A program made the translations under genes and the position numbers. Of a stretch of DNA of 64,000 nt, positions 4,366 to 35,059 are shown piece by piece; positions within the stretch are counted from its first letter, which is position 1, and every line of letters begins with the position of its first letter. Source of the DNA: Lachnospiraceae bacterium. Its GTDB lineage: Bacteria; Bacillota; Clostridia; Lachnospirales; Lachnospiraceae. The notes under the pieces were generated by a model that worked only from the letters and a program-made list of their open reading frames with translations, did no database searches and was not told where the DNA came from. The stretch is from the NCBI GenBank assembly GCA_017431345.1, contig JAFRLH010000055.1, positions 58,229-122,228 on the forward strand, given 5' to 3'.

Positions 4366-4405
4366 GGCCCGCTCCCAACAAACAAAACACGAAAGGAGCA
4401 CCACT

Positions 4406-13964: not shown

Positions 13965-14303
13965 TTATTCGATCGTGATCCTCTTCTCCTCAGCTGCCTT
14001 CTCGTAAGCAATCTTCGGAATCGTCAGGATCAGGACACCGTCCTTATAAGCTGCTTTGACATCTTCAGTCTTGATGTCTCCGACATAGAAACGTCTCTGG
14101 CACTTGCCGGTATAGCGTTCTTTTCTGAGAGGCTTCATGGTCTCGTCATTCAGGAACTTGGCTTCTACGGTCAGATATTCTTTCTCAACGTACGCTGCGA
14201 TCTTTTCCTTGGCGCAGCCCGGGATGTCTACCTTCAGCACATAAGCCTCATTGTTTTCCAGAATATCGCATCTCATTAAATCATTTCTTCTTTCCATGAT
14301 CAT
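13965..14303 (-). CDS. Hsp20/alpha-crystallin small heat-shock protein
   Basis: M(I)MERRNDLMRCDILENNEAYVLKVDIPG...YKDGVLILTIPK. Start placed at ATG 14303 or 14297. The track ORF extends to 14399. Confidence 0.85.
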   Translation of the reverse strand: MIMERRNDLMRCDILENNEAYVLKVDIPGCAKEKIAAYVEKEYLTVEAKFLNDETMKPLRKERYTGKCQRRFYVGDIKTEDVKAAYKDGVLILTIPKIAYEKAAEEKRITIE

Positions 14304-14423
14304 CCCTTCTTTCCGTATGATTAAGAGGATCCTTGGGCATTCCGGCTTCCGGTGGATACGCTTTTCTGCATCTGCACCGCCTTCCTGCGTTCTGATCACT
14401 CTCTTTTTTCTCTTTACGCCTAT

Positions 14424-14452
14424 GTTATAGCACTTCTGTTAGCACTCGTCAA
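14424..14452 (-). promoter_or_regulatory. Sigma-A type promoter of hsp20 overlapping CIRCE
   Basis: The minus strand has TTGACG (14452-14447), a 17-nt spacer, then TATAAC (14429-14424). The -35 lies in the CIRCE spacer. Confidence 0.55.
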
Positions 14453-14465
14453 GAGTGAGTGCTAA
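14439..14465. promoter_or_regulatory. CIRCE operator (HrcA binding site)
   Basis: TTAGCACTC-GTCAAGAGT-GAGTGCTAA is a perfect match to the TTAGCACTC-N9-GAGTGCTAA consensus. Confidence 0.85.
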
Positions 14466-14627
14466 CATTTTTTGTGAAATTTCCGTGAAGAAATGATTAA
14501 ATGACTTATTTTGCGGGTTCCGGTCTTCTTTCCATCGAAAATATACTGTACTGATCTGTGCAATATTCTTCTTATAGTTCGTTCTGCTGCCCAACGCAAG
14601 ACGCCGCCTGATAACCTCAGACGGCGT
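14449..14627. repeat. Non-coding module copy X1 plus hairpin H1
   Basis: tcaagagtgagtgctaacattttttgtgaaatttccgtgaa... is identical for ~41 nt to 16327 onward. It is homologous to 22024 onward, with an internal deletion. It ends in the hairpin AGACGCCGCCTGA-taacc-TCAGACGGCGT at 14599-14627. Confidence 0.8.
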
Positions 14628-14648
14628 TTCGACATGTGAATTTCTTTC

Positions 14649-15992: not shown

Positions 15993-16023
15993 ATTGTCCG
16001 CCCTCCCTATATGGCCAAATATA

Positions 16024-16103
16024 GCATTTCTTCAATTGTTTTTCAAGCGAAATATTCCGTTTCTTCAATTATTTATCGTCAAACAACTTCCGTTTCTTCA
16101 ATA
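16024..16103. repeat. Three direct 14-bp repeats phased at 33 bp upstream of NTPase-1
   Basis: The copies are gcaTTTCTTCAATT (16024), ccgTTTCTTCAATT (16057) and ccgTTTCTTCAATa (16090). Confidence 0.7.
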
Positions 16104-16177
16104 TTATCCGATTGCTTATGTACCATTGCCTAATACTATTCCGAGCCCGAAGATGGTCTCCTGTCAGAATATGCAAT

Positions 16178-16380
16178 CTGACCAATTTTTTGACCAATTT
16201 TGCCTAACACCAGACGCCGCCTGATGAGCTCAGACGGCGTCTTCCTTTACTGCATATTGTGTTTTTCTTTTCCGGACACCACTACATAAGCCATGACAGG
16301 GGCTGTTAAACCGACCGCAACCGTAATCAAGAGTGAGTGCTAACATTTTTTGTGAAATTTCCGTGAAAATTGATGTGCTG
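16178..16380. repeat. Non-coding module copy Y2 plus the start of X2
   Basis: It contains cTGACCAATTTTtTGACCAATTTTg. Hairpin H2 is AGACGCCGCCTGA-tgagc-TCAGACGGCGTCT at 16212-16242. A ~90-bp conserved stretch then ends in the right CIRCE half, tcAAGAGTGAGTGCTAAc. It is about 93% identical by eye to 21875-22040. Confidence 0.85.
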
Positions 16381-16450
16381 TCCTATCTATGGTAACCATT
16401 TTTATCAATACAGCGGCAGATCGGGTCCGCCAAACCAATGTTTCGGCTTT

Positions 16451-16618
16451 TGTGCAATTTTGATAGCATCCGGACATTTTTACTGTCTCTGTTTTTGCAA
16501 TAATCTCCTCTTTACGGAAAAATGCTGTCACGATCCGTGCAATAATGCTGCCTTTCAGGATTTTCTACTGTCCTCTTGACCTTGTTTTTCTCAACTCTCC
16601 GCGTAAAAAAGGACAGTA
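16451..16618. repeat. Iteron-like array: three 42/43-bp units (TGTGCAATAA...TACTGTC) plus an inverted TACTGTCC/GGACAGTA pair
   Basis: TGTGCAAT-like words are at 16451, 16494 and 16536. (T/A)(A/G)CTGTC words are at 16481, 16523 and 16566. GGACAGTA is at 16611. Confidence 0.7.
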
Positions 16619-16859
16619 TAATTCTATTTTCGCAGCCTGATTGCACAAAAACGATACATTTCACCTGTTATTGCCTCTCTCAGCCGCATTTTGGGGACAG
16701 CACAATTTCATATATGCCTGTTTTTTGCACCGCTTCCCGCCTGAAATTGAAATTACGCCGCCATCAACATGACGAGGCCGCGATCCGTTCAGTTGGATCA
16801 CCGCCGCTTTCTTCGTGATCATCAGTATTCTCGAAAGCCATCGCCAAAAACAGAGATTT

Positions 16860-18803
16860 TCAAGTATGAGAGCCATTCTTCCGCCCGCAGCATTTCTTAT
16901 ACTTTTTCCCGCTGCCGCAGGGACAGGGATCGTTGGGGTAGATTTTTCTTACACCGGCCTTCACTTCTCCGGCGAGGCCATTCGGCATGGCCATGATCGG
17001 AATCGAATCCGCCGTCATTTCATTATCGACCTCAAAACCCAGCTGCTTCAGCTCCCTGCTCCCATTTTCAAGCAGGTCTGCAGCATTGCTGCTCATCGGA
17101 ACGATCACCGGGCGCCTTCCGGGAGCGGATGCCGGCATTAAAGACAACATCTCGTTCGGCGTATGGCCTCTCAGTTCAAACATTCGCGTGTGGTTGTTCA
17201 GATCCATAATGATCTTCGCAAAGGATTCGATCTGTCCCTTTGCAGAGAACTCGATTCCTCGGGAATTCAGTTCTTCCATATAGTCAGAAAGCATTCCGCC
17301 GCCGGAGAACACCATAAATGCGTACCGGCAAAGTTCCTCACTCAATTCTGCTTCCAGCTTCAGGTCATTCTGAAGGAATCTGAACAGCTTCTTATACGAT
17401 GGATTCGAGGCCGGGTACCCGTTTGCCGGGAGTTCCCGGATTTCAGTTTCCCCGGGAAGATAGAACGCAACATCCCTTTGCCTGGCTTCGATCGCGAGAA
17501 AAATATCTCCTTCTGCCGCTTCATTGGCAACCAGTCTGTTCCCCATCACGCGGCATGGATTCAGTTTTTGCGGGATTCTCTGCAAGAGCTTCTGAAATCC
17601 CCCGTAATCAGTCTGACTGCCGTTTCTCTGTTTGTACATCCGGAACAGATGTTTTACCGGTCCTACAACAAATAAAGCCGAAAATGTCTGCAGGCACTGA
17701 ATCAGCCATCTCGCATCTGTATGATAAGCCCTGTATCCGTTTTTGCAGATCACTTCATAGACCGCAGCCACATCCCAGGGTACCTCCACCGTATCGTCGG
17801 AGTATTCCGCAAGATAGTTCAGCTCATAGATGCCTTCCAGATGATACCAGTCTTCGTCCGTCGGCCGGAAATGTTCTTTTTTGATTGCCGCCTCGAACGC
17901 ATCCAGATCCTCCTCCGGCAGTTCCAACAGCACACTTCGCATGACATCCGGCTCCAGCAGATGCCGGGCCAGTTCATAGGCAATTCTGGGTTTTTTCTGT
18001 GCCTTCAGATCACAGCCGGTCTCTTCCGCCGTTTCTATAAGAAGGTCCTTGGGATACGAATTCAACAGATCCAGCAGCGAACCTGTGCTCTGTTTCTCCT
18101 GTACACGTGTCGTGGCAGAGGTCTTCGGAACCGGAGACACCTTCTGTTGTTCCGTGGCAGCCTGCAAGAGAAGACGGCTTGCCTCAGTAAGCATTGCGCT
18201 CGTAGATTTCCCAAGCAGATTATTGCGGCTTTTGATTTCTTTACAAGTGCCGATTCCCTGCCCTTTCCGTACGCGGTTAAAGACTGCGGCAAAGGACGGA
18301 TATCCAGGTCCTTCCTCTTTCAGGAAACAGCTATCCTTCAAGATCTGATTGATTTCTGTTCCATCGCCCCAATATTCATCTTCTTTTACCGAAACTTCTT
18401 TCAGTATGACCGGATAAAAGAGCGAGCTTTTATCGCTTTCCTCAGTAAACCGGATATCATCTAATATTTTTTCGACTTCTACTCTATACTCCGGAGCACT
18501 ATCCTGTTCTTTCACGCGGAAAGTAAACCAGGTTTTATTCATAAGCCAGTCGTCGGCGCAGGAATCCTTTGCACTCCAACAGGAGTACTCATAACTGTAG
18601 GGAATTCTTCCCTTTCCCTGACTCTCGAAGATACGATCTTTTTCCTGAAAGAACTCAAACTCAAACCGGGCTGTCCGCGGCAGCTCCAGCATTACTTCCA
18701 GTATATATGCCAGTTGGGAAAAAGTAATATGCAGCGGAAGATACGCGCGTCGCCAACGGGGCGGTTTAATACCTTTTCTGATTGCTTTGATCTGAATGAA
18801 CAT
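16860..18803 (-). CDS. PRiA4_ORF3-like N-terminal domain protein with a C-terminal SEC-C metal-binding motif
   Basis: 647 aa. The N-terminus IQIKAIRKGIKPPRWRRAYLPLHITFSQLAYILEVML resembles the IKPPIWRR module of the plasmid pRiA4b ORF-3 family. The C-terminus is PNDPCPCGSGKKYKKCCG. Confidence 0.7.
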   Translation of the reverse strand: MFIQIKAIRKGIKPPRWRRAYLPLHITFSQLAYILEVMLELPRTARFEFEFFQEKDRIFESQGKGRIPYSYEYSCWSAKDSCADDWLMNKTWFTFRVKEQDSAPEYRVEVEKILDDIRFTEESDKSSLFYPVILKEVSVKEDEYWGDGTEINQILKDSCFLKEEGPGYPSFAAVFNRVRKGQGIGTCKEIKSRNNLLGKSTSAMLTEASRLLLQAATEQQKVSPVPKTSATTRVQEKQSTGSLLDLLNSYPKDLLIETAEETGCDLKAQKKPRIAYELARHLLEPDVMRSVLLELPEEDLDAFEAAIKKEHFRPTDEDWYHLEGIYELNYLAEYSDDTVEVPWDVAAVYEVICKNGYRAYHTDARWLIQCLQTFSALFVVGPVKHLFRMYKQRNGSQTDYGGFQKLLQRIPQKLNPCRVMGNRLVANEAAEGDIFLAIEARQRDVAFYLPGETEIRELPANGYPASNPSYKKLFRFLQNDLKLEAELSEELCRYAFMVFSGGGMLSDYMEELNSRGIEFSAKGQIESFAKIIMDLNNHTRMFELRGHTPNEMLSLMPASAPGRRPVIVPMSSNAADLLENGSRELKQLGFEVDNEMTADSIPIMAMPNGLAGEVKAGVRKIYPNDPCPCGSGKKYKKCCGRKNGSHT

Positions 18804-18953
18804 GTTTCCTCCTGTGTTCCGAAATATGCTTTTTATTTTAGTTTCAGCAATACAGATCTTTTAACGTCAGCAGTTTTACTTTTTCCGAGTCCGCGTTTTC
18901 TTCCACGCTCATTTCCTGATCTTCCAAACTGCTGTCACGTGTCAAATGACTGT

Positions 18954-20300
18954 TCACTGCTTCCTTGCTCTGAGCCAGTCCCTTAACAGAAAGGTACAAT
19001 AATACGGAAAGGTATATATACTGTTCTCAATTCCCACATTATTCATGGATAGCTTTATTCCCCACTGAATATCAGCATACTTATCATTCCTGATCAGGGA
19101 TCTCAAAGACTGAGATCTGCCGCTTCGGGCTTTTACCTCCACCGGAATCAATCTTTCCGTATCTCTGACAAAGAAATCCTCCTCCAGCGTGCCATCCTCA
19201 CGCTTATAATAGTACAGCGAGTATCCTTGTTTATATAAGGCCTCCCCCACGATGTTCTCATATAGCGCTCCTTTATATACGCCAAGATTTTTATTGGCTC
19301 TCAGATCTTCCTGGGACTCGTCATCCAGCATAGCCGTCAGAATTCCCGTATCTGCCATGTACAGTTTGAATTTCAGATCGTCATAGTTTCCTTTTAACGG
19401 CAGTTCCGGAAAATTCAGACAGTAGCATTTTTTTACGATACCGGCATCCTGAAGCCAGTCTATACATCCGCCGTAATCATGAAATCTGGCACCTGAGGCC
19501 ACTTTTGAAATCTGAAATTTCTTGTTGTCCTTTGCCAGCTGAGCCGGTATTGCATCAAAGACCCTCGCAATACGTGTCTGATCCACGCCATCCGCATATT
19601 TCCTGATGTCGTCTCGGTAAGCAGTTATAATCTGTTTTTGAAGTTCATGGGTGCCTGAGAATGATTTCGTGTCATAATACCTCGCAACGACCTCCGGCAT
19701 GCCGCCAAGGATTGTGTAATCAATAAACAGCTGCATCAATGAATCCTGTATGGCACTGCCGAACGGCTTTCCTTCCAGCATATGAGACAGCAGATCCTGC
19801 TTCAGAGAGTCATCGTATCCTCTCGCCCACAAAAACTCCTCAAAATCCAGAGAATACATCTCATAGTCTGTTTTATACCCAACGCTGACACTCTCAATCT
19901 GTTTGTAGTTAATTCCAAGCAGAGAGCCGCTGCAGATGACATCAAAGCGATGATCAATGGCAAAGAACTTCAAGGATGTTGCAATGTCCGGGCAGGCCTG
20001 CATCTCGTCAAAGAACAGCAGAGTTCTGCCTGCTTCAAAATAGAATCCCGGTTCGATCCTTGTAATGTTTTTTATAATATCATCCGTATTATATCCGTTT
20101 TCAAGAATCGTTCTGAACTTCGGACTCTCGATGAAATTAATCTCGATAATGTTCTCATAGTGTGCTCCGGCAAATCTTCGGATGGATTCTGTTTTTCCGA
20201 TCTGCCGTGCTCCTTTTATGATTAATGGCTTTCTATCCTTGTCCCGGTACCAGTTTTCAAGATAATCATCAATTTTTCTTTTTAAATAGCTCATGTGCAC
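18954..20300 (-). CDS. AAA-type P-loop NTPase with a DUF4143-like / PD-(D/E)xK-like C-terminal domain (paralog of 14649-15992)
   Basis: 448 aa. Walker A is IIKGARQIGKTE and Walker B is LLFFDEMQ. The C-terminus is EEDFFVRDTERLIPVEVKARSG. Confidence 0.8.
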   Translation of the reverse strand: MHMSYLKRKIDDYLENWYRDKDRKPLIIKGARQIGKTESIRRFAGAHYENIIEINFIESPKFRTILENGYNTDDIIKNITRIEPGFYFEAGRTLLFFDEMQACPDIATSLKFFAIDHRFDVICSGSLLGINYKQIESVSVGYKTDYEMYSLDFEEFLWARGYDDSLKQDLLSHMLEGKPFGSAIQDSLMQLFIDYTILGGMPEVVARYYDTKSFSGTHELQKQIITAYRDDIRKYADGVDQTRIARVFDAIPAQLAKDNKKFQISKVASGARFHDYGGCIDWLQDAGIVKKCYCLNFPELPLKGNYDDLKFKLYMADTGILTAMLDDESQEDLRANKNLGVYKGALYENIVGEALYKQGYSLYYYKREDGTLEEDFFVRDTERLIPVEVKARSGRSQSLRSLIRNDKYADIQWGIKLSMNNVGIENSIYTFPYYCTFLLRDWLRARKQ

Positions 20301-20530
20301 ACCTGTCTTTCTGTTTTATATAGTATAATATTGATCTGAGCCACATCTGTCAATATTTTCAGAGCCATTTGCGTCTGCTTTCTTTTATTTTTAGAGCCAT
20401 TTATTGTCTTTTGGATACAATTTTTAGATAAAGCCCTCACATATTTCCTTATAAGCGTCAAGACAAGAAGCAAATATTTGTTCGCCTGACTGTCAGGAAT
20501 TACATACAGCATTCAACTATGCCCATCTAT

Positions 20531-20660
20531 CTGACCATTTTTTTGACCAGTTTCCCGTAAACCCAGACGCCGCCTGATACCTTCAGACGGCGTCTCCTAT
20601 TACTGTATATTGTTATCCTACACTCCGGATACCTGTGCATAAGGCATTACAGGCTCCATC
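20531..20660. repeat. Diverged non-coding module copy Y'
   Basis: It contains cTGACCATTTTTtTGACCAGTTTCc and hairpin H3, AGACGCCGCCTGA-tacct-TCAGACGGCGTCT, at 20565-20595. Homology to Y2/Y3 decays after that point. Confidence 0.7.
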
Positions 20661-20723
20661 AATAGTGTTCTTCTTCATATGTCCGGCGCACTAATTCATC
20701 AAAATAAGGCAAGGTAAAAGTAA

Positions 20724-21734
20724 CTACTCCCCAGCTGTCACCCTTAACAAGTCCTTTTTGATCAGCCTTTTCCGATATGGACTGAATTCATCTTTGCTCA
20801 GATGAAGAATCTCTCTCACTTCCGCTGTTCTGTGGCTCTGCGCCTTCGCTATTCCATAAGCAACAAACCGGTCTTTCTGCGACAGCCGTTCCCAGATAAT
20901 ATCATAGGCATAATCATGTAATCTGACTTTCCACTCCTTCCGCACCGCTTCTGTATACCGGCATTGATTTTTCCAGGTAAAATAACCAATCAGCTGAAAT
21001 GCGTAAGGATATCCTTTTGTTTCCCGGACCATATCCAGTGCAGTATCCGGATCCATTCCCAGTGTCTCTTTATAGTCATTCTGAATCTGCTGAATCTGTA
21101 AAGGCTCCATAATCAGTTTTGGTGCCCTATACAGAAAAGTAAGATTCTTTACATTTTGCAATTCTTCTATATTTTCAGACAGACCAGTCATCAGCAAAAA
21201 TACCGGAAGATCATCCCGGATGTATAATTGAAACGCACTTGCAAATGCCACCATTTCCTTTGATTTTATAATCTCATCGATCGCAATTAATACCCGTTTA
21301 TTCTGACGTTTGAGACTTTCGAGCATTTTTTTCAACGCGATTTCCGGATTGCTGATTTTGGGTGCTCCGGATACTTCCAGGCCCACTCCGAAAAATGACA
21401 GGTTGATACTGGCATTCTGAAAGACCCTGGCCAATGTTTTTTCTGCCGCCAGTGCAGAAATGGTTTTATCCAGTATATCGCCGCCTGAACTGATGCTGAC
21501 GACAATCCAGTCTTCCTGTTGTTTAAAATATGCCGTTGCGTCAGTTAAGAAAACTGTTTTCCCTGATCTCCGCACACCGGTTATCATGTAGATCTGGATC
21601 ATCGGTTCTGGCACTGTAAAATCATCCGTAACCTGTCGCAACAGTTTCTCCCGCCGAATATTACGGATCGGCTCCTTCCCAAACATAATAGAATATGGAT
21701 TCAGTTTCATTGCCTGCGATCTTCCTTTTTCCAT
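20724..21734 (-). CDS. P-loop NTPase (Arch_ATPase/ORC-Cdc6-like) with a wHTH-like C-terminus
   Basis: 336 aa. Walker A is ITGVRRSGKTV and Walker B is LIAIDEII. The likely start is MKLNPYSIMFG at 21710. Confidence 0.7.
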   Translation of the reverse strand: MEKGRSQAMKLNPYSIMFGKEPIRNIRREKLLRQVTDDFTVPEPMIQIYMITGVRRSGKTVFLTDATAYFKQQEDWIVVSISSGGDILDKTISALAAEKTLARVFQNASINLSFFGVGLEVSGAPKISNPEIALKKMLESLKRQNKRVLIAIDEIIKSKEMVAFASAFQLYIRDDLPVFLLMTGLSENIEELQNVKNLTFLYRAPKLIMEPLQIQQIQNDYKETLGMDPDTALDMVRETKGYPYAFQLIGYFTWKNQCRYTEAVRKEWKVRLHDYAYDIIWERLSQKDRFVAYGIAKAQSHRTAEVREILHLSKDEFSPYRKRLIKKDLLRVTAGE

Positions 21735-21874
21735 ACTGATAAAGTCCTTTCCCAGTCCAACGAATAATGACTGCTGTTTTACTCTTTCTAATTATTTTAC
21801 TCTTTTTACTCTTTTATTTTTTATTCCATTGTTTTAGCCAGATCAAGATATTTATGTCCGGAAAAGCCATAACT

Positions 21875-22080
21875 TTGACCAATTTTCTGACCAATTTTGC
21901 TTAACACCAGACGCCGCCTGATAACCTCAGACGGCGTCTTCCTTTACTGCATATTGTGTTTTTTTCTTCCGGATACCACTACATAAGCCATGACAGGGGC
22001 TGTTAAACCGACCGCAACCGTAATCAAGAGTGGGTGCTGACTTTTTTTGGTAACTTTTCGTGAGAAGTTGATGAAGTGAC
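21875..22080. repeat. Non-coding module copy Y3 plus the start of X3
   Basis: It contains tTGACCAATTTTcTGACCAATTTTg and hairpin H4 at 21909-21939. A conserved stretch follows, ending tcAAGAGTGgGTGCTgAc at 22024-22041. Confidence 0.85.
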
Positions 22081-22158
22081 TTATTTCTGCGTGTTTCGCT
22101 CTTCTTTCCATATACATTTCCGGGCAGCCAGCCGCCAATCTGCTTTTCCGGCTTCGTT

Positions 22159-22327
22159 TGTGCAATAAATGATGTTCTATAAAATTATACTGTCCCGGAT
22201 TGTGCAATAACCGCTTTCCATTGAAAAAATACTGTACTGATCTGTGCAATAATCTTCTTATAAAATGTTTATACTGTCCTAATTTCACTGACAGATGACA
22301 CAAGCCAGTGCAAATCAGGACAGTATA
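22159..22327. repeat. Iteron-like array: three exact-phase 42-bp units, followed by a 21-bp-arm inverted repeat
   Basis: TGTGCAATAA is at 22159, 22201 and 22243. ATACTGT(C/A)C is at 22187, 22229 and 22271. The inverted repeat is tatactgtcctaatttcactg (22270-22290) against cagtgcaaatcaggacagtata (22306-22327). Confidence 0.8.
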
Positions 22328-22667
22328 TTTTGTTTTTTGACTTCGAATTGCACACCGAACAGGAATACTATGCTTTTCTGCCGCCGTCATACGCTGTTTA
22401 ATGACAGTACACTTATTCAAAAACCTATAATTTTGCACTCTATTGGCATGACATGATAAAAAAACACCGCCTGATACGGAATGATGCAGCAGGGGACGTT
22501 ATTTCAGTCTTTTATTGTCATAATTTGCATAAAACCGGCAAATATTTGTTGAATTCTATTGTGATATTGATATTATATTAAATAAAGAATTATGAATCTG
22601 ACGGAGAAGGGATCTTCTCCCTGCTCCGTCTTCCGGCACCATCACGAAAGGGGGCGGCTGACAGGTA

Positions 22668-23639
22668 ATGTACTATTTTCGAAAAAAAATTTGCGGTTCA
22701 TTAAGAAGAGAAATGATCCGTGCTGTCCTTGAACGCATGCAGGGCATGGAAATCGAATTCAATACAGAACGAATAAACAATCTGCAGGAACAGGGATCAG
22801 ACGGGAAATACGAAGTTGACAAAATGCTGAACATTCCGTACATGAACCGCGGTGAGGTCCCTCTGGCGATGGATATTTTCAGGCCGGTCGTCCCCGAAGG
22901 GCAGGAACTGCCTGTAATCATCACGATCCATGGCGGCGGACTTGTGGCCGGGGACCGTTCGATCTCAAGATACCTCGCGAACGATCTCGCCGGACGGGGA
23001 TATCTCGTCTTCTCCCTGGAATACAGACTGGCTCCGCGGGCGAACGCGGCGGAACAGCTTGATGACATCTGCGCCGGCATGGATCTGGTCGGCAGAAAAC
23101 TCGTGGATTTCGAAGTGGATTTCACGCGCATCTTCCTGACGGCGGAAAGCGCCGGCGCTTATCTGGCGATCTATGTTGCCGCCATGAAAAAATCTGAAAA
23201 GCTTCAGAAAGCGATCGGGTATGAGCCTACCAGAATGACCTTCAAAGCGCTCGGGCTGATCTCCGGCATGTTCTATACGAAACGCCGGGATCCCATCGGA
23301 CTGCTTCTCTCCGAGCAGTTCTACGGCGATAAGCGCCTGGACAGGGATTTTCTTCAGTACATGGATCCCGAACACCCGGAGATCATTGACAATCTGCCTC
23401 CTGTTTTCCTGATCACGAGCCGGGGGGATTTTCTGAACAATTATACCCTGATGTATCACAAGGCGCTGAAAAAGGCAGGAAAAAAGACACATCTTGTCTA
23501 TTATGGAGAAAAGGAACTTTCTCATGCTTTTGCTTCCCTCTCCCCCGATCTTGAACAGGGAAAGGATGCGATCGACCGGATGCTCCGCTGGTTCGAGGAA
23601 CAGGCAGATGCGGCCGGCAAAGATCCCGCGAAGCAGTAA
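22668..23639 (+). CDS. Alpha/beta-hydrolase fold-3 carboxylesterase/lipase
   Basis: It has the oxyanion-hole motif IITIHGGGLVAGD and the nucleophile-elbow-like motif TAESAGAY. The exact start is uncertain; internal Met codons are possible. Confidence 0.8.
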   Translation: MYYFRKKICGSLRREMIRAVLERMQGMEIEFNTERINNLQEQGSDGKYEVDKMLNIPYMNRGEVPLAMDIFRPVVPEGQELPVIITIHGGGLVAGDRSISRYLANDLAGRGYLVFSLEYRLAPRANAAEQLDDICAGMDLVGRKLVDFEVDFTRIFLTAESAGAYLAIYVAAMKKSEKLQKAIGYEPTRMTFKALGLISGMFYTKRRDPIGLLLSEQFYGDKRLDRDFLQYMDPEHPEIIDNLPPVFLITSRGDFLNNYTLMYHKALKKAGKKTHLVYYGEKELSHAFASLSPDLEQGKDAIDRMLRWFEEQADAAGKDPAKQ

Positions 23640-23692
23640 TTTCTGAAATGAATTTTAATTATTAATAAATGATCTGTAAGGAGGAATCTGAT

Positions 23693-23914
23693 ATGGCACT
23701 TCGAAAAAAAGCCCCAAAAATCATGAAACCCGTCCTTCCGGCCCGTCCCCCCATCGCCCGCCGTCCGAAGCCCATTAAGCCCGGGCGCCGTCCTGCAGGC
23801 CCCGCTCCTGCCCTGCTTCTTCTTGCTGCAGTGCCGGCAATCAAGAACAAGCGGAAAAAGACTGCAGCCGAACCCGGCAAGGCACCTGCCGAACAGCCCC
23901 CGGCTGATTCCTGA
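23693..23914 (+). CDS. 73-aa Pro/Lys/Arg-rich small protein with one hydrophobic segment
   Basis: A strong RBS, TAAGGAGGAATCTGAT, precedes the ATG. The sequence is MALRKKAPKIMKPVLPARPPIARRPKPIKPGRRPAGPAPALLLLAAVPAIKNKRKK... I recognise no homology, and low complexity makes the coding call uncertain. Confidence 0.45.
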   Translation: MALRKKAPKIMKPVLPARPPIARRPKPIKPGRRPAGPAPALLLLAAVPAIKNKRKKTAAEPGKAPAEQPPADS

Positions 23915-23961
23915 CCTGCAGGCCGCTTCTTCAGAACAAGAAAGGAACTGTACTCCGGGAA

Positions 23962-26076
23962 ATGAATACGATCGAACAGAAGAACTACGAGAAGGTCTCT
24001 GCGCGTGTCAGAAGCGGAAAGATCACGGCGCAGAAGAGCTGGAAAATGATCAGAGAGCTGAATTCCTTCAGCGACGAGAGGCTTGATAAAGCTGCCCTCA
24101 TTACCGGTAAGCGCACATTCACATACCGCCAGCTGTTCAGGCAGTGGGAACGCTATGCGGAAGCGTTCTCAGGTCTGGGGATTACCTGGAGAAAGCATTC
24201 CAGAGTCGGAGTAGTATCCACCCCCTCCGCCGAATCCGTGTTCACTTTTTACGGGCTGAACATGACAGGCGCTTCCGTATCCATGATCCACATGCTGGAT
24301 GTACTGGAAAGTTCCCGTTTTGACATAATGATCCGCAAAGAAGGGCTCACAGATCTTATTTTCAGCGATATTGCCGTAAATCCCGCGCTGGTACGGCGTA
24401 TTGCGGAAAACAAAGAGTCACTCGGCCTCCGCAATATTATCATTTCACAGAATACTGTGGCAGGCCCCTTTGCTCCCCCTGAGCTGAAGCTGCACAGCAG
24501 GATGATCCACAGACAGTTAAAGACGATCCCCGGCGTCCTGTTCATGGATGACCTTCTTGAAGAATACGAAGCCCATCCCATTGTTTACGGACGCAGCGCT
24601 TCTGCGGAAGACGCGCTCATCATTCATACTTCAGGGACCACGAGCGGGATCCATAAGCCTGTTCCCTTTTCTGATCAGGCATTTAACGAATCTGTCTCCA
24701 GGCTTTTGACAGACGAAAGGTTCCGTTTTATGGAGGGAACTGCCGTCTCATTCCTGGGAATGGAACTGGCCGCGTCTTATGCTGTCATGGACATGATGCA
24801 TCTTCCGCTTTCCTTTGGCGGTGCTATTGTAACGATTCCCATGGGCATCTTTAATCCGTTGATGGGGAAGGCTATTCCGCATTACGGCGTGAATATCATG
24901 TTCGGGTCTCCCGGCATGATCGAAGACTGGATCAGAGTCCCGGAAAAACCGGATCTGTCCTCGCTCGCCTTTATCTTCCTTGGCGGCGTATATGTCTCGC
25001 TGGACGAAAAACGCCGGCTGGATAATTATCTTGCAGAATGCGGCTGCAAAGTCCGTACTACGATCGGTTACGGACTTACCGAAGCAGGGGCTGCTGTCAT
25101 CATTTCGGATGCAGAACGCACAGACGATGCCATCGGATTTCCGCTGCAGGGAGTAAAGGTCCTGATCTGCGATGAAGAGGACGGAAAATTCTATACGCCG
25201 GAAGACGGGCCCCATACCGGCACCCTTTTCCTGTCGACGCCGTCTTTAAGCAGCGGCAGGATCGATGACGAAGTCTTTTTTACGCTTGATGAAATAGACG
25301 GAGAGTCTTTCCTGAACACCTATGACAAGGTGACAGTCTATGAAGACGGCAGCCTTTGCTGCATCGGCAGGACAGACAAATACTTCGTGAATAATGAAGG
25401 CGTCCGGTTCGACGCAGGGATCGTGGAAACCGCGGTGGCAGCGCAGCCGGGGATCAGGGCCTGCGCGCTCGCTCCCGGATTTGACAAACTTCTTCACGAT
25501 ACGATTCCCGTCCTGTATGTCAGTACAACGGTGGCCGGCCGCGGTGCCGCAGGCGTCGTCCGCCAGGCTCTGTGCAATGCTTTCATAAAGGAGAACAGAA
25601 TACAGGAAACAAATCTTCCGGGACAATGCGTCATCACGGAGAAGATCCCATTCACGGAGACCGGGAAGGTAGATGTGCACAAGATCTTAAAGGCCGGGAT
25701 CAACGGAAAACGATTTACCGTGACGCCTGTACGGATCCGGGGGAAGCTTACAGATGTAACGCTTATTCCCGCTCCCGACTCGGTCCAAGAAAAGATCGGC
25801 TTATGGACAGGGCTCCCTGAAGAACTGGAAATGAATGCAGATGTTCTCAAAACGGCTTTCACACCTGCTTTTGAACGCGCCAAATCCGGTAAGAACAGGG
25901 CTTTCGCCCCGCCGGTCCCGCCCGGGAAGTCCGGAGAACAGGGCTTTCGGAATTTTGATCCGCGCAGGAAGCATCTTCAATTTACGATCATGCTTCTGCA
26001 GCATTCCCTGGAATTCTGCCGCAGACTGCAGGGATCGATCGCGCCTGAACCTGAAGATGATGACACATTTTCGTAA
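23962..26076 (+). CDS. Divergent adenylate-forming (AMP-binding/ANL superfamily) enzyme, paralog A
   Basis: 704 aa. Motifs are IIHTSGTTSGIHKP (A3-like), IGYGLTEAG (A5), IGRTDKYFVNNEGVRF (A8) and PFTETGKVD (A10 Lys). About 120 aa of non-catalytic C-terminal extension follow. Confidence 0.8.
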   Translation: MNTIEQKNYEKVSARVRSGKITAQKSWKMIRELNSFSDERLDKAALITGKRTFTYRQLFRQWERYAEAFSGLGITWRKHSRVGVVSTPSAESVFTFYGLNMTGASVSMIHMLDVLESSRFDIMIRKEGLTDLIFSDIAVNPALVRRIAENKESLGLRNIIISQNTVAGPFAPPELKLHSRMIHRQLKTIPGVLFMDDLLEEYEAHPIVYGRSASAEDALIIHTSGTTSGIHKPVPFSDQAFNESVSRLLTDERFRFMEGTAVSFLGMELAASYAVMDMMHLPLSFGGAIVTIPMGIFNPLMGKAIPHYGVNIMFGSPGMIEDWIRVPEKPDLSSLAFIFLGGVYVSLDEKRRLDNYLAECGCKVRTTIGYGLTEAGAAVIISDAERTDDAIGFPLQGVKVLICDEEDGKFYTPEDGPHTGTLFLSTPSLSSGRIDDEVFFTLDEIDGESFLNTYDKVTVYEDGSLCCIGRTDKYFVNNEGVRFDAGIVETAVAAQPGIRACALAPGFDKLLHDTIPVLYVSTTVAGRGAAGVVRQALCNAFIKENRIQETNLPGQCVITEKIPFTETGKVDVHKILKAGINGKRFTVTPVRIRGKLTDVTLIPAPDSVQEKIGLWTGLPEELEMNADVLKTAFTPAFERAKSGKNRAFAPPVPPGKSGEQGFRNFDPRRKHLQFTIMLLQHSLEFCRRLQGSIAPEPEDDDTFS

Positions 26077-26133
26077 GATACCGATATGATCTGCGAGAAG
26101 AGAAAAACATATGAAAAGGAGATCTGTCACACC

Positions 26134-28920
26134 ATGACAAAAGCGGAAGAAAAAAAATATGCAGCACTCTCTGCGCGTATCGCGAGCGGCGAGATCGCGG
26201 ACCAGAAAAGCTGGAAAATGATCCGGGAACTGAATTCCTTCAGTGAGGAACGCCTGAATTCCGTTGCTATGATCGACTGCACGCGCAAGTACACCTACCG
26301 CCAGATGTTCAGGCAGTGGGAACGGTATGCAGAGGTGTTCTCCGCCCTTAATATTACCGGAAAGAACAACTCCCGGGCAGGCATGCTTTCCGCTCCTGCC
26401 GTTGAATCCGTCTTTGCCTTTTACGGTCTGAACATGACCGGCGCATCCGTTTCCATGATCAGCACGACCGATGCGCTGAATCTGGACCTCCTCGAAAAAA
26501 TGATCCCGGAGGAAGGCATTACGGATCTTCTTCTTACCGATACGATCCTGCAGCCCGAACTGTTCCGGCGTCTGATTGCTGAACAGGAGGCGCTTGGGCT
26601 CCGCAATATCATTGTGCTCCACTGGGAACTTACAGGCCCCTATGTCACCCGGAATCTTAACCTGTACAGTAAGAATCATTATAAGCAGATCAAAAAGATC
26701 CCCGGCGTTGTTCTTATGGACGACCTGCTTGACCAATACGAGGCAGCACCTATTGTCTACGGCCCCGCTCATTCTGAAGAAGCTGCCCTGATCCTTCACA
26801 CCTCCGGAACGACCAGCGGGATCCACAAACCGATCCCGCATTCTGACCTGGGGTTCAATGAAGCCGTTGCCAGGCTGCTGCGGGACGACCGTTTTAAATA
26901 CCTGGCCGGCAATGCAAGGACCTTCCTCGGGCTTGATCTTTCAGCCTCTTTCGCCATGATGGATATGCTGCATCTGCCGCTCGCTTTCGGCGGCACTGTC
27001 GTTTCGATCCCCATGGGCTTCTATAATACCGCTGTCGCAAGAGCGATCAAAGATTTTGATATCAATGTTCTGTTCGGCGGCGGATTCCTGCTGCCCCAGA
27101 TGATGCGCAGCCCGATCAGGCCCGATCTGTCTCCTCTTGAACTGTGCTTCATCGGCGGTGTATATACTTCGGCGGACAGAAAGAAACAGTATGAGGAGTT
27201 CCTTGAAAAATGCGGTTCGAAAGCCCGTATTACCATCGGATACGGCCTGTCTGAAGCAGGCGCCGCTGTCATTATCGCCGACCCGGAAAGAACGGACGAT
27301 GCGATCGGCTATCCTCTTCCCGGCGTGAAGGTAAAGATCTATGACGAAGAAGAGGAAAAATACTATTCACTGGAAGACGGGCCGCATACAGGCGTCCTGT
27401 TCCTCTCCTCCCCTTCTGTCAGCAGCGGCAAAATCGATGACAAGGTGTTCTTTACCCTGGAAGAGATCGACGGGGAAGAATATCTGAACACCTATGATCT
27501 GGTTACAGTCAATGAGGACGGCAGCCTCACCTGTATCGGAAGAGCCAACAAGTATTTCGTGAACAACGAAGGCATTCGTTTTGACGCGGGGCTTGTGGAA
27601 ACGGCGGTTTCGGCACAGCCCGGGATCATCTCCTGCGGCCTGGCGCCGATCTATGAGAAGAGCATCCATGACACGGTCCCTGTCCTCTATGTACATGCCG
27701 AAGGGAATCCTGCTGCCGCCATGCGGACAGTCCATCAGGCTCTTCTGAATGTCTTCATAAAGGAGAACAGGATCGTGGATACGAACCTGCCGGGCCAGTG
27801 CGTGATCACGGACCGTATCCCGATGACGACGACAGGGAAAGTCGATGTTTATGCGATCATAAAAGAAGGCGTAAAAGGACCGGTATACATGGTAACGCCG
27901 ATCCGCAGGCAGGGTAAGCTGATCGATATCGGTCTCGTTCCCGTTCCGAAGAAAGCCGACAGTCATGCAGTTCTTTCAGGCATGCCCGATGAGCTTCATT
28001 TCGGGAAGGATTTAAGGCAGGCTGTGGGATTATTCTTCCCCGGTCTCGACCGTGCGGCGCAATCCGGAGACTGCCGGCAGGCACACGAGCCGATGCGCGG
28101 ACCGATGCGGCCTCCGTTCTTTGACAATATGAGGCAGGGGAACGGCCCCATGCGTGCGCCTTTCTTCGGGAACCGTATGCCGAACCGCTTCCCCATGACT
28201 CCTCCCTGGTTCGAAAACCGGCAGCAGAACCAGGACGGACAGGCTTATAGCGATCCCCGTCAGTACGGACTGGAGATGGTCATCCAGTTCCTGCAGAATA
28301 TGATCGATGTGTGCCAGCAGATGGAGAACATGCCTTCCCCCGGCGATGGCTATCAGCCTCCTCAGGGGCAGCAGGGCTTCATGCCTGGCAATGGCTATCA
28401 GCCTCCCCAGGGGCAGCAGGGCTTCATGCCCGGCAATGGCTACCAGCCTCCCCAGGGGCAGCAGGGTTATATGCCCGGCAATGGCTATGAACCTCCCCAG
28501 GGGCAGCATGGCTTCATGCCAGGCGATGGCTATCAGCCTCCTCAGGGACAGCAGGACTTCATGCCCGGCAACGGCTATCAACCTCCTCAGGGACAGCAGG
28601 GCTTCATGCCAGGCAATGGCTATCAGCCTCCCCAGGGACAGCAGGGCTTTATGCCCGGTGATGGTTACCAGCCTCCTCAGGGGCAGCAGGGCTTCATGCC
28701 CGGCAATGGCTATCAGCCTCCCCAGGAACAGCAGGGCTTCATGCCCGGCAACGGTTACCAGCCTCCCCAGGGACAGGGAATGCCTATGCCCCGGATGGGC
28801 TTCATGCCGCAGGGCAGCCAGAACGGATCAGATCCCGGGCCCATGATGAGAGACTTCGTCTTTGATATACTCCGCAAACTGTTCTATGCCTCTGATACAG
28901 ATTATTTCTATGAGGATTAA
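26134..28920 (+). CDS. Divergent adenylate-forming (ANL) enzyme, paralog B, with a long Q/P/G/M-rich repeat tail
   Basis: It has the same motifs as paralog A: ILHTSGTTSGIHKP, IGYGLSEAG, IGRANKYFVNNEGIRF and PMTTTGKVD. The N-terminus MTKAEEKKYAALSARIASGEIADQKSWKMIRELN aligns with paralog A. The track ORF begins at 26086. Confidence 0.8.
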   Translation: MTKAEEKKYAALSARIASGEIADQKSWKMIRELNSFSEERLNSVAMIDCTRKYTYRQMFRQWERYAEVFSALNITGKNNSRAGMLSAPAVESVFAFYGLNMTGASVSMISTTDALNLDLLEKMIPEEGITDLLLTDTILQPELFRRLIAEQEALGLRNIIVLHWELTGPYVTRNLNLYSKNHYKQIKKIPGVVLMDDLLDQYEAAPIVYGPAHSEEAALILHTSGTTSGIHKPIPHSDLGFNEAVARLLRDDRFKYLAGNARTFLGLDLSASFAMMDMLHLPLAFGGTVVSIPMGFYNTAVARAIKDFDINVLFGGGFLLPQMMRSPIRPDLSPLELCFIGGVYTSADRKKQYEEFLEKCGSKARITIGYGLSEAGAAVIIADPERTDDAIGYPLPGVKVKIYDEEEEKYYSLEDGPHTGVLFLSSPSVSSGKIDDKVFFTLEEIDGEEYLNTYDLVTVNEDGSLTCIGRANKYFVNNEGIRFDAGLVETAVSAQPGIISCGLAPIYEKSIHDTVPVLYVHAEGNPAAAMRTVHQALLNVFIKENRIVDTNLPGQCVITDRIPMTTTGKVDVYAIIKEGVKGPVYMVTPIRRQGKLIDIGLVPVPKKADSHAVLSGMPDELHFGKDLRQAVGLFFPGLDRAAQSGDCRQAHEPMRGPMRPPFFDNMRQGNGPMRAPFFGNRMPNRFPMTPPWFENRQQNQDGQAYSDPRQYGLEMVIQFLQNMIDVCQQMENMPSPGDGYQPPQGQQGFMPGNGYQPPQGQQGFMPGNGYQPPQGQQGYMPGNGYEPPQGQHGFMPGDGYQPPQGQQDFMPGNGYQPPQGQQGFMPGNGYQPPQGQQGFMPGDGYQPPQGQQGFMPGNGYQPPQEQQGFMPGNGYQPPQGQGMPMPRMGFMPQGSQNGSDPGPMMRDFVFDILRKLFYASDTDYFYED
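28342..28791 (+). repeat. 45-bp in-frame tandem repeat, about 10 copies, encoding G(N/D)GYQPPQGQQGFMP
   Basis: ggc(a/g)atggctatcagcctcc(t/c)caggggcagcagggcttcatgcc(t/c) repeats head-to-tail from 28342. The copies differ by a few substitutions only. Confidence 0.95.
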
Positions 28921-28950
28921 GGAGTTGGTAAATCTCCCGTGAACAGGATA

Positions 28951-28988
28951 AGCCGCCGCCCGATCCACTCGGGCGGCGGCTTTTTTTG
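28951..28988 (+). terminator. Rho-independent terminator of the adenylase operon
   Basis: AGCCGCCGCCCG-atccact-CGGGCGGCGGCT followed by TTTTTTT. Confidence 0.85.
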
Positions 28989-33401: not shown

Positions 33402-34181
33402 TCATCTCATACAGCCGTACCAGAACTGAATCGCTTTACCGATCCACCCTTCCGCAGACGTACCGCTTCCGAGGCCGACGCCGTGGCCGACCCCCGGGAA
33501 TATCTCGCTTTTATAGATCACACCCTCTGCCGCAAGCGCCTCGGCCATGCGCAGGGTATTTTCCGGCTGCACGGTCTCATCCGCATCTCCGGTCCAGATG
33601 TAAGTGGGCGGGTAGGCATCCGTCACATGCTCTTCCACGCTCGTGAACATTTCCCCTCTCAGGGAAGCATCCTGGCCGAGCAGATTGTCATGCGTATCCT
33701 TCTGTGTATATTCTTTCAGCATGGAAATGACCGGATAGATCAGGATCATCGCTTCCGGCTTCGGCAGGGAATATTTTGCATAGCCCATGTTCTGCGTGCC
33801 GAAGGAAGCTGCCAGATGACCGCCGGCAGACGAGCCCCAGACGCTGTAATGATCCGTATCAAGGCCGAACCGTTCGCTGTTCTTAAAGATGTACTTCACA
33901 GCCCGTGCCAGATCTCTCTGCGGCGCGGGAAATCTTGCCATCTCCTTTGTATGATAATAAACGATAAAGGCGGAGATCCCGTGCCTGTTCAGTTCCCTTG
34001 CAAAAGGAACACCTTCTATGTAGCTGCATACTTTTGCATAAGCGCCTCCCGGGGCGATCACGGCAAAAGGATGCTTTTTCCCGTCGCGGATCACGAAACG
34101 GGTATCCAGCCGGCATTTATTGGGCTGAAAAAGATCGCGGATGTACTGTTTCAGGTCAGCATCAACTGGCAGTCCGAACAT
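33402..34181 (-). CDS. Alpha/beta hydrolase (esterase)
   Basis: 259 aa with the VWGSSAGGHLAA nucleophile elbow and PTYIWTGDADETV. Confidence 0.75.
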   Translation of the reverse strand: MFGLPVDADLKQYIRDLFQPNKCRLDTRFVIRDGKKHPFAVIAPGGAYAKVCSYIEGVPFARELNRHGISAFIVYYHTKEMARFPAPQRDLARAVKYIFKNSERFGLDTDHYSVWGSSAGGHLAASFGTQNMGYAKYSLPKPEAMILIYPVISMLKEYTQKDTHDNLLGQDASLRGEMFTSVEEHVTDAYPPTYIWTGDADETVQPENTLRMAEALAAEGVIYKSEIFPGVGHGVGLGSGTSAEGWIGKAIQFWYGCMR

Positions 34182-34255
34182 GTTTATTCTCTCCTTCTCA
34201 TCGATTTTTTGTTAATTATACTGTCTGTTAATATTACTGCAGACCGGCTGGTTCC

Positions 34256-35059
34256 TCAACCTGTTTTTGACCGAATCCGCTTCCGGAATTCAGCGGGCGT
34301 CATATGATATTCTTCCCGGAATACACGATTGAATGTCCGCTGGCTGCCGAAGCCGGCATCCAGACAGATCTCTGTCACCGGATCCTCCGTATCCTCAAGC
34401 AGATGACGGCTGTACTCCAGGCGGGTGAGATTCAGATACCGGTTGAAGTTCATGTTAAATGACTGCGAGAAAATCCTGGATAAAGCGAACGGATTGACAT
34501 ACAGATCCCTCGCCATGGAATCCAGTGTGACCGGCTCCGTGAAATGCTCCGCAATATAAGACACGGTCCGTTCCACCAGACTGGCTTCTTCTCTCTTTCT
34601 TGGTGTCAGTGCAAGGACAGGGAGGATGCGGCCAAGGAGGATCTGCATATATGCTTCGCGGATAGCCGCTGCGTAAGATCCGGCTTCCTCTCCGGATGTG
34701 AGCACTTTCAGCGCATACCTGATATCCGGATGGACCATATCGGCCCGGATGACCGGAATTTTCGCAACATTTGTCTCCAACACCTGAATAAAACGGCCCA
34801 ACAGAGAGGGATCTGCCAGAATAAACTCCACCTGGCCGCCTTTACCGGTAAACTCCTGATAAAAATGGATCTGGTTCGGGAACACGACGCCCAGATCACC
34901 GGCTTCCAGGTGATACAGCTCCCTGTCGACGCCGAACTCAATCGAACCCTCGCATACATGAACGATTTCCAGCGCAGCATGCAGAGAGGGTGCAACAAAG
35001 CCGGCTCTTCTCTTAAATACTTCAAAGTCCTGATCTTCTTTTTTGTACAGGAGATGCAT
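34256..35059 (-). CDS. AraC family transcriptional regulator (cupin sensor plus HTH)
   Basis: It has an N-terminal cupin-like region. The C-terminus is LARDLYVNPFALSRIFSQ...ICLDAGFGSQRTFNRVFREEY. Confidence 0.85.
   Translation of the reverse strand: MHLLYKKEDQDFEVFKRRAGFVAPSLHAALEIVHVCEGSIEFGVDRELYHLEAGDLGVVFPNQIHFYQEFTGKGGQVEFILADPSLLGRFIQVLETNVAKIPVIRADMVHPDIRYALKVLTSGEEAGSYAAAIREAYMQILLGRILPVLALTPRKREEASLVERTVSYIAEHFTEPVTLDSMARDLYVNPFALSRIFSQSFNMNFNRYLNLTRLEYSRHLLEDTEDPVTEICLDAGFGSQRTFNRVFREEYHMTPAEFRKRIRSKTG

Follow-up and report, generated by a model that had tools for sequence, protein, structure and literature searches.

A predicted operon of a serine esterase and two tailed adenylate-forming enzymes of a divergent ANL clade in a Lachnospiraceae bacterium

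Introduction

The best sequence relatives of the two adenylate-forming enzymes described here, ANL1 and ANL2, are DltA and the adenylation (A) domains of nonribosomal peptide synthetases (NRPSs). Both enzymes are encoded next to an esterase and a small open reading frame (ORF) in a window of 64,000 nucleotides from a Lachnospiraceae bacterium (GenBank assembly GCA_017431345.1, contig JAFRLH010000055.1, positions 58,229 to 122,228 of the forward strand); the window is this whole stretch, and coordinates are counted from its first letter. With DltA and the A domains they share the two-domain fold, motifs A3, A5, A8 and A10 and the Asp of A7, and some of their relatives are encoded in one operon with A-T-C proteins. 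They differ in that the amino-binding Asp is not conserved in the ANL family, that most loci have no carrier or condensation domain, and that N-terminal helices, disordered tails and, behind A10, a beta-hairpin carrying a GxPEEL motif have been added. The top structural matches are aryl-acid coenzyme A (CoA) ligases (4-coumarate, benzoate and anthranilate ligases, EntE, CahJ), which activate non-amino carboxylic acids. Identity to these is only 15-21%, however, they are barely separated from acetyl-CoA synthetase, luciferase and MatB, and no curated threshold is reached.

In olefin biosynthesis, OleBC is a fusion of a beta-lactone decarboxylase with a beta-lactone synthetase (PMC7158056). Common to both systems is an ANL enzyme that works on the same acid as an alpha/beta-hydrolase encoded beside it or joined to it (PMC7158056), and the order of the esterase-ANL (EST-ANL) fusions among our relatives matches that of OleBC. 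OleB, however, is related to haloalkane dehalogenases, whereas the partner here is a serine esterase of the hormone-sensitive lipase (HSL) type. The thiolase OleA and the reductase OleD were found in no locus, and the OleC model is absent among the 25 NCBIfam matches listed (of 54-58).

On the polyhydroxyalkanoate (PHA) granules of Pseudomonas, PhaZ, ACS1 and PhaF are localised by amphipathic phasin helices and AAKP-like basic repeats (PMC5658603). There, as proposed here, an ester hydrolase is followed by an acyl-CoA synthetase, and the type II and esterase tails described below look similar. In our case, however, the tails belong to the enzymes themselves, the similarity to phasins is below threshold, a PHA synthase was not seen, and the tails in the window are Gln/Pro/Gly-rich and not phasin-like. 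SSB and FtsZ consist of a folded core, a variable low-complexity linker and a conserved C-terminal tip that recruits partners; this core-linker-tip architecture is shared, whereas the proteins and the tip sequence are unrelated.

The analysis given here firmly supports that HSL-type esterases and this ANL clade form a dedicated pair. The two partners probably associate physically and work on one and the same non-amino carboxylic acid, for which hydrolysis followed by activation is tentatively proposed. The superfamily and both folds are already known; the ANL clade is without a curated model, a solved structure or a characterised member, and no description of it, or of a rumen ANL-esterase system, was found in the literature.

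Results and Discussion

The esterase and its association with the ANL enzymes

Four co-directional ORFs on the plus strand, for the esterase, the small ORF, ANL1 and ANL2, were present in the ORF list where a preliminary description of this DNA had placed them. The three enzymes are the following.

22668 to 23639, plus strand: esterase of 323 aa, a serine carboxylesterase of the HSL family by Pfam and motifs
23962 to 26076, plus strand: ANL1, 704 aa (Pfam AMP-binding, 3.2e-35)
23962 to 25836, plus strand: core of ANL1, residues 1-625, with N-terminal helices (1-40) and, after A10, a beta-hairpin and the G-x-P-E-E-L motif
26134 to 28920, plus strand: ANL2, 928 aa, paralog of ANL1 (core 26134-28008, the remainder a disordered tail)

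By its sequence, the product of the 323-aa ORF is assigned to the HSL family. It matches Pfam Abhydrolase_3 with 77.2 bits against a cut-off of 25 (1.9e-21) and BD-FAE at 1.7e-18, and it carries the HGGG oxyanion motif (IHGGGLVAGD), the AESAG elbow (TAESAGAY) and the Asp (SRGDF) and His (LSHAF) of the triad. The best match in the PDB is EstB (4n5h, 1.5e-18). Compared with its ortholog in the 88%-identical sister locus L004, the ratio of nonsynonymous to synonymous substitution rates (dN/dS) is 0.075.

A scan of one genome per species yielded 76 ANL loci, and mapping of their neighbourhoods showed that the esterase, treated in the preliminary description as a mere neighbour, is in fact the only partner to be conserved, encoded beside the ANLs or fused to either end of them. 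An alpha/beta-hydrolase was found by tblastn in 45 of the 75 related loci (36 of the 52 with at least 9 kb). By family, the hydrolase partners comprised 39 of the HSL type, nine membrane-anchored COesterases and two Abhydrolase_1 proteins. The HSL gene was co-oriented with the ANL gene in 41 of 45 matches, and esterase homologs adjoining or fused to the ANL family are 60-75% identical. Two HSL types could be distinguished. Type A, 54-75% identical to the esterase of the window, occurs in about 19 loci directly upstream of, or N-terminally fused to, short-tailed ANLs, and type B lies directly downstream of long-tailed ANLs in about 26 loci. Fusions were found as EST-ANL (many, e.g. P0057 and P0018), as ANL-EST (P0005) and as ANL-EST-ANL (P0252, 1659 aa), and in the fused esterases Ser, Asp and His are retained along with HGGG. 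No fusion partner of the ANLs other than an esterase was seen. The pairing of the clade with esterases looks obligate.

A divergent clade of ANL enzymes

The ANL products were compared with Pfam, NCBIfam and the PDB, by Foldseek, and by phmmer with 1.84 billion representative proteins; 89 homologs were aligned. AMP-binding is the sole Pfam domain in both (122.1 and 108.8 bits, gathering cut-off 29.9). BLASTP aligned ANL1 and ANL2 with 52% identity over about 700 residues, the tail helix being collinear across a large gap, and the match takes in the N-terminal segment SAR..SG.I..QKSWKMIRELNSFS.ERL. The two had been described as paralogs with a common N-terminal segment, and this holds; the segment is moreover a hallmark of the family, and the family-specific N-terminal helices of ANL1 are ordered in the AlphaFold2 model, with a predicted local distance difference test (pLDDT) score >94.

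Residues H222, G225, T226, G229, Y370, E374, D455, G469, R470, G568 and K569 are invariant in the 89 homologs, which covers the P-loop of A3, YGxTE of A5, the Asp of A7, the GR hinge of A8 and the Lys of A10; at least 90% of them also have K232 of A3. This agrees with the earlier statement that A3, A5, A8 and A10 are kept. The P-loop of A3 is a variant, HTSGTTSGIHKPVP (TSGTTSGIHKP; ANL1 residues 221-235, window 24622-24666), in which KP replaces the usual PKG, and this KP is kept across the family. The canonical A7 motif had been reported as replaced. Its Gly is indeed altered, to Tyr in the clade of the window (NTYD) and to Asn in the main clade (NTND), but NTYD aligns with (S/T)GD of DltA and its Asp, D455, is invariant in the homologs, so that the motif is modified rather than lost. 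Further invariant residues of ANL1 have no counterpart in the canonical motifs, namely Cys501, His512 and Asp513 in the C-terminal subdomain (approximately window 25462-25500) and Asn477-Asn478 in A8 (approximately 25390-25395). Such residues may be signs of a step peculiar to the family, for instance binding of the acceptor.

The AlphaFold2 model of ANL1 (pLDDT 84, predicted template modelling score 0.83, tail <50) has a large N-terminal and a small C-terminal domain with a beta-hairpin after A10, and that of ANL2 has a confident core, with residues 635-928 mostly at pLDDT <50. Since the A3, A5, A8 and A10 residues and the A7 Asp are invariant and the two-domain fold is predicted confidently, both enzymes are predicted to be catalytically competent. 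Foldseek gave 621 PDB matches to ANL1 at E<=0.001, and all 50 listed are ANL enzymes. Aryl-CoA ligases stand at the top (15-21% identity, E about 1e-27, TM-score 0.65-0.70 on the target), in a ranking that does not resolve the substrate class because acetyl-CoA synthetase, MatB and luciferases score alike.

The 25 NCBIfam matches listed per ANL (of 54 and 58) all lie 4-50 times below their cut-offs; the best score is 93.9 bits against 632 for PRK07529, and TIGR01733 reaches 79.5 bits against 317. In the PDB the best sequence relative is DltA, at 1e-11 with the single sequence and at 5.7e-22 (7r27) with a family profile. Only 102 of the representatives were found by phmmer at E<=1e-30. The family itself amounts to about 55 full-length clusters, from 814 down to about 180 bits, and the first outgroup consists of giant multimodular NRPSs at about 150 bits, followed by ordinary 600-aa ANLs at about 118 bits. 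The nearest common relative, P0315, is 29% identical, and its genomic context is uninformative. ANL1 and ANL2 are thus true ANL enzymes in a small, isolated clade with no characterised member. Their earlier designation as divergent fits these results, as no curated family cut-off is reached and the PDB matches are 15-21% identical; profile searches place them outside the well-characterised ligase clades, with a confident ANL fold. What seems new in the clade are the modified A3 and A7, the extra N-terminal helices and the hairpin after A10.

The position of the amino-binding Asp197 of DltA is occupied by Ser in ANL1 and ANL2 and is variable and non-acidic in the family profile, although this assignment depends on the alignment. 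Because of this Ser, an alpha-amino acid is unlikely to be the substrate. Ordinary activation of exogenous fatty acids was considered, with the ANLs as long-chain acyl-CoA or acyl-ACP (acyl carrier protein) synthetases working with lipases and the tails as neutral drift or membrane anchors. The best NCBIfam matches, far below threshold, are to acyl-CoA and long-chain fatty-acid CoA ligase models, the hydrolase partners include lipase-type and membrane-anchored esterases, genes for an Aas-like ANL-ACP-acyltransferase and for phospholipase D are occasional neighbours, and the rumen is rich in free fatty acids. We nevertheless regard this explanation as distinctly unlikely: the scores are 6-7 times under the family cut-offs, phmmer places NRPS A domains above plain acyl-CoA synthetases, homologs occur in Methanomassiliicoccales, whose lipids are isoprenoid and not fatty-acyl, and the tails are under purifying selection, with a conserved tip common to esterases.

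Related loci and distribution

Tandem ANL paralogs are common, with three or four ANLs in L042, L053 and L054, and the sister locus L004 consists of an ANL-EST fusion followed by the orthologs of ANL1 and ANL2. A recurring larger cluster has the order EST-ANL, GPH-type symporter, MATE-HATPase_c_2, ANL, ANL. Neighbour clustering over 79 loci yielded nothing recurrent beyond hydrolases, MATE-HATPase_c_2, GPH symporters and LytS/LytTR. In the MATE-like transporter of these clusters, a HATPase_c_2 domain resembling anti-sigma kinases has been fused to the C-terminus, an odd architecture seen in L052 (3939-5702) and in 14 other loci. A multi-pass membrane protein of about 200 aa, with a weak match to the MAGa3780 family, follows the ANL in L021 (8843-9442) and five other loci, and a distant homolog of it (30% identity) is encoded at 9991-10461 of the window.

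Some of the relatives stand in operons with NRPS genes: L083/84 has the order A-T-C, ANL, ANL, EST-A, EST-B, and L085/86 the order ANL, 65-aa ORF, EST-A, EST-B, A-T-TE, A-T-C-A; L010 and L074 also have NRPS genes. Carrier proteins or domains are encoded with an ANL only in L010, L074 and L083-L086, and none is encoded within about 6 kb of the operon in the window. NRPS adjacency was thus found in 2 of the 76 genome loci and in two loci reached through the esterase. The statement that the context is not that of an NRPS therefore remains true for the window and for most loci, but not for this minority of relatives, whose operons include A-T-C proteins. In L085, a protein of 135 aa with an AKP-rich, histone-like tail is encoded upstream of the ANL (4024-4431), in a locus that has NRPS genes.

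These operons bear on a biosynthetic explanation, according to which the ANLs would activate hydroxy, aryl or fatty acids and the hydrolase-fold partner would form an ester, lactone or amide in the manner of a thioesterase or acyltransferase. The system would then work without a carrier in the window or as an NRPS accessory in the relatives, with export by MATE/MFS transporters and with the tips serving for docking in the way known from assembly lines. NRPS A domains and DltA are the closest relatives, co-operonic A-T-C and A-T-TE proteins are found in L083/84, L085/86, L010 and L074, and the tandem arrays, in which two to four ANLs are accompanied by transporters and one or two hydrolases, look like secondary-metabolite clusters. 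The hydrolase-ANL fusion mirrors OleBC (PMC7158056), and vibralactone cyclase, an Abhydrolase_3 protein, is among the PDB matches of the esterase. On the other hand, the NRPS adjacency is rare, the window and most loci have no carrier or condensation domain, the adjoining MFS_2 proteins belong to the GPH-type symporters, as a rule importers, several unrelated hydrolase families serve as interchangeable partners, and HSL-family enzymes are mostly hydrolases. Taken together, a biosynthetic role, the main rival of the function proposed below, is somewhat unlikely. A transfer that needs no carrier, in which the acyl-adenylate made by the ANL would be handed directly to the serine of the hydrolase fold to give an ester or amide, within an assembly held by tails and tip that has spread through Bacteria and Archaea, is unlikely.

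For at least 49 of the 76 loci the title refers to the RUG rumen series, a ruminant host or a ruminant organ, and no title names another habitat. On the side of the Clostridia the hosts are Lachnospiraceae, Butyrivibrio (including the isolate LC3010), Oscillospiraceae, Christensenella and Mogibacterium; among Coriobacteriia they are Olsenella, Atopobiaceae, Denitrobacterium and Eggerthellaceae, and among archaea Methanomassiliicoccales/Thermoplasmata. Identity to ANL1 is 43-47% in most loci. In Butyrivibrio sp. LC3010 the ANL gene adjoins that of its esterase, and esterase homologs were found in strains WCD2001, WCE2006 and AE3006 and in Ruminococcus sp. NK3A76. An MCM helicase is encoded about 1.6 kb from the ANL gene in L044 (6001-12429), and an archaeal-type lysyl-tRNA synthetase lies adjacent in L057 (6001-10641); because of these neighbours the archaeal contigs are taken as genuine. 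The ANL family therefore appears to be bound to the ruminant gut and to have moved between Bacteria and Archaea by horizontal transfer.

C-terminal tails

Both ANLs of the window end in tails, in which the following elements could be located.

25960 to 26037, plus strand: tail helix of ANL1, residues 667-692, inside a short disordered acidic tail
28255 to 28326, plus strand: tail helix of ANL2, LEMVIQFLQNMIDVCQQM, residues 708-731, common to ANL1 and other type I tails
28339 to 28776, plus strand: 45-nt repeat in 9.7 copies with units (P)GNGYQPPQGQQGFM (Tandem Repeats Finder score 645, 86% matches)
28837 to 28917, plus strand: C-terminal tip of ANL2, ...DFVFDILRKLFYASDTDYFYED, made up of an amphipathic helix and, behind it, an acidic aromatic end

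Within the family the length of the tail after GxPEEL varies from 2 to 395 residues (median about 250). Type I tails, found in the clade of the window, are Gln/Pro/Gly/Met-rich and of low complexity, with an internal helix and a tip of the consensus LLxRxFNASxxDxFYED, which could be aligned in 12 family members. Type II tails, found in the main clade, have a conserved DPYNILSE...IPGLREL...FD segment, a Met/Pro-rich stretch and helices, and then acidic or KAPE-rich repeats. Stand-alone esterase homologs with tails carry mostly basic, Lys/Ala/Thr/Pro-rich ones, and some acidic ones.

The tails of the window are disordered in both AlphaFold2 models. The helix of ANL2 at residues 708-731 has a pLDDT of about 58-60, with similar helices in P0014, P0017 and P0029, and the tip helix (residues 902-919) one of about 50. 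The repeat region, at about 30, is a low-complexity disordered linker whose sole Pfam match, to glutenin, is compositional and below threshold. The description of the tails as non-catalytic with a shared helix is in line with these results, as they are disordered and recurrent and the helix is collinear between ANL1 and ANL2. Fused and short members of the family lack tails, so that catalysis does not depend on them; in the EST-ANL fusions no more than about 55 residues follow A10. Compared with L004, dN/dS was 0.12-0.16 in the cores (ANL1 core 0.16), 0.27-0.40 in the unique parts of the tails (ANL1 tail 0.27) and 0.12 in the repeats, and from these tail values of 0.12-0.40 the tails appear to be maintained by purifying selection. 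The possibility that the tails are dispensable, strain-specific and without a partner, raised in the preliminary description, is thus answered in both directions: they are missing in some members, yet purifying selection and the conserved tip speak for a function. An 867-aa version of ANL2 (P0125) was considered as a repeat-number variant and was not used, because it ends inside the repeats at an apparent contig end. That end is probably a contig end or an assembly collapse, and it shows that the repeats are hard to assemble.

The tip also ends some of the partner esterases, namely P0164 (...FLRSIFNASDIDYYYED), P0207 and P0184. In L083 the repeat tail is on an ANL without the tip, and the tip is on the adjoining esterase. 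It looks like one label per operon, common to the esterase/ANL pair. The tip was also considered as a general targeting signal, for which the profile search, of low sensitivity, gave no evidence, since it returned only tail fragments of the family. We infer that the tails are tethers or docking elements and not catalytic.

Type II tails gave recurrent weak matches to four phasin models and to apolipophorin-III. For the type II tails of relatives the best value was 0.0035 for PhaP_Bmeg (3 of 14), followed by Phasin_2 at 0.0085 and TIGR01985 at 0.012, all below threshold, and the phasin models gave no match with the tails of the window. The esterase and the ANLs could on this basis be tethered to an inclusion or condensate by phasin-like, basic or Gln/Pro-rich tails and turn over a store of esters. 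Type II tails end in KAPE-/AAKP-like repeats, as does PhaF (PMC5658603), esterase homologs have basic Lys/Ala/Thr/Pro tails, and both enzymes share the tip. Such an ester store is nevertheless highly unlikely, given that every phasin match is below threshold with none in the window, that neither a PHA synthase nor another inclusion gene was seen in any locus, and that tail composition varies from acidic to basic to Gln/Pro-rich. Nothing of use was found in the literature on lipid droplets of rumen bacteria.

Proposed function of the pair

We propose, tentatively and as possible rather than probable, that the esterase and the ANLs carry out hydrolysis followed by activation, for salvage or detoxification of feed esters. 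The esterase would free a non-alpha-amino acid from a feed-derived ester inside the cell, the ANLs would activate the freed acid with ATP to the acyl-adenylate, and a thiol acceptor, CoA being the most plausible one, would then receive the acyl group. The two ANL paralogs would cover two different acids, and the purpose would be the salvage or detoxification of plant esters. The tails would serve as disordered tethers, with the helical acidic tip as a docking peptide that holds the partners or a third partner, and in the relatives the same end would be reached by covalent fusion. The reaction order, the nature of the acceptor, the class of the substrate and docking through the tip are inferences. 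This proposal is favoured because at least three hydrolase families have been recruited (HSL, membrane-anchored COesterase and Abhydrolase_1), because the clusters repeatedly include MATE transporters and GPH-type glycoside symporters, and because paralog arrays, variable context and cross-domain transfer in one habitat resemble catabolic or detoxification genes.

Several points weigh against it. No conserved CoA-consuming or acyl-transferring neighbour was found near the ANL loci, and about 40% of the loci, including most archaeal ones, have no hydrolase in the fetched flanks. In sequence the ANLs are closest to NRPS A domains and DltA and not to acyl-CoA synthetases, and the four kinds of related loci with NRPS A-T-C or A-T-TE operons point to biosynthesis. 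For strict anaerobes it is unusual to invest two ATP equivalents in the activation of a compound to be degraded. With regard to the tip, the full-length AlphaFold2 model of ANL2 gave no confident docking on its core in cis. A profile of 12 tips compared with 5.8 billion proteins returned only two ANL-tail fragments, in a search of low sensitivity with 15 candidates, and yielded no receptor and no other protein class with the tip.

Small ORF and surroundings of the operon

Between the esterase and ANL1 lies a further element:

23640 to 23914, plus strand: lineage-specific insertion with AT-rich spacer, ribosome-binding site and 73-aa ORF, recognised by comparison with L004

Read from its first ATG, the small ORF at 23669-23914 encodes 81 aa; translation from 23693, just downstream of the ribosome-binding site AAGGAGG, gives the 73-aa form, which is identical to MBQ6360991.1. 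About 260 nt have been inserted here that are missing in the 88%-identical L004. About 23 nt of the ancestral 3' end of the esterase gene are duplicated and flank the insert, and the microprotein takes its last codons from this former end of the esterase gene. The 75 related loci contain no homolog, and neither Pfam nor NCBIfam gave a match. Because of this lack of a homolog in related loci, the 73-aa Pro/Lys/Arg-rich ORF is a recent, lineage-specific addition and not a conserved component. As a candidate conserved partner it was accordingly rejected and explained as an insertion, and its earlier inclusion as a component of the system is not upheld. Its composition resembles the basic tails of esterase homologs at the same position, and the best similarity, to the AKP-rich N-terminus of P0017, is compositional. 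One may speculate that it acts as a detached basic tail. An acidic ORF of 65 aa between ANL and esterase in L085 (6781-6978) has no sequence relation to it.

The idea put forward earlier, that the ANLs acylate themselves or the 73-aa microprotein, could draw on its strong ribosome-binding site, its position inside the operon and the small ORFs between ANL and esterase in L085/86. With a recent insertion that is missing in the sister locus and has no homolog elsewhere, an unrelated small ORF in L085 and no conserved carrier-like serine motif in the tails, it is extremely unlikely.

The borders of the operon are marked by two elements:

22549 to 22576, plus strand: promoter-like site upstream of the esterase, TTGAAT, 16-nt spacer and TG-TATTAT (consensus scan, a pattern match only)
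28950 to 28982, plus strand: intrinsic terminator, a stem of 14 bp (11 of them G-C) and a T run behind it

As this promoter-like site and the strong terminator bracket all four ORFs, the esterase, the small ORF, ANL1 and ANL2 are predicted to form a single transcription unit. The longest ORF of ANL2 (26086-28920) has 944 aa. The likely start is 26134, giving 928 aa, because AAGGAG lies upstream of it, the homology to ANL1 begins there and the NCBI entry MBQ6360993.1 agrees; no ribosome-binding site precedes the alternative start at 26086.

The genes flanking the operon, for AAA_14/DUF4143 ATPases, a transaldolase, an Na/Pi transporter and HlyIII, are on the opposite strand or unrelated. No carrier, condensation, thioesterase or CoA-using gene was found within about 6 kb on either side, just as the preliminary description had it, and its conclusion that the context is not a standard one for an acyl-CoA synthetase or NRPS is supported for the window. 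Upstream of the operon, the stretch 14000-22500 has a lower GC content (0.41-0.47 against about 0.52 elsewhere). It encodes two AAA_14/DUF4143 ATPases, an ATPase_2-like protein and a SEC-C-motif protein on the minus strand, and may be a foreign island at the place where L004 has its third, esterase-fused ANL. A second BD-FAE/Abhydrolase_3 esterase of 259 aa is encoded 4.4 kb downstream, beside an AraC-family regulator (33402-35059, minus strand); BLAST found no similarity between it and the operon esterase.

Significance

The ANL clade is a candidate marker of a task specific to the rumen, either the handling of plant esters and organic acids or the making of a metabolite. Its repeated fusion with a serine esterase offers a testable two-enzyme unit, and tails with one tip common to both enzymes would be a new form of tail-mediated enzyme assembly in prokaryotes. 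The identity of the substrate could bear on lipid and phenolic metabolism in the rumen, and hence on feed efficiency.

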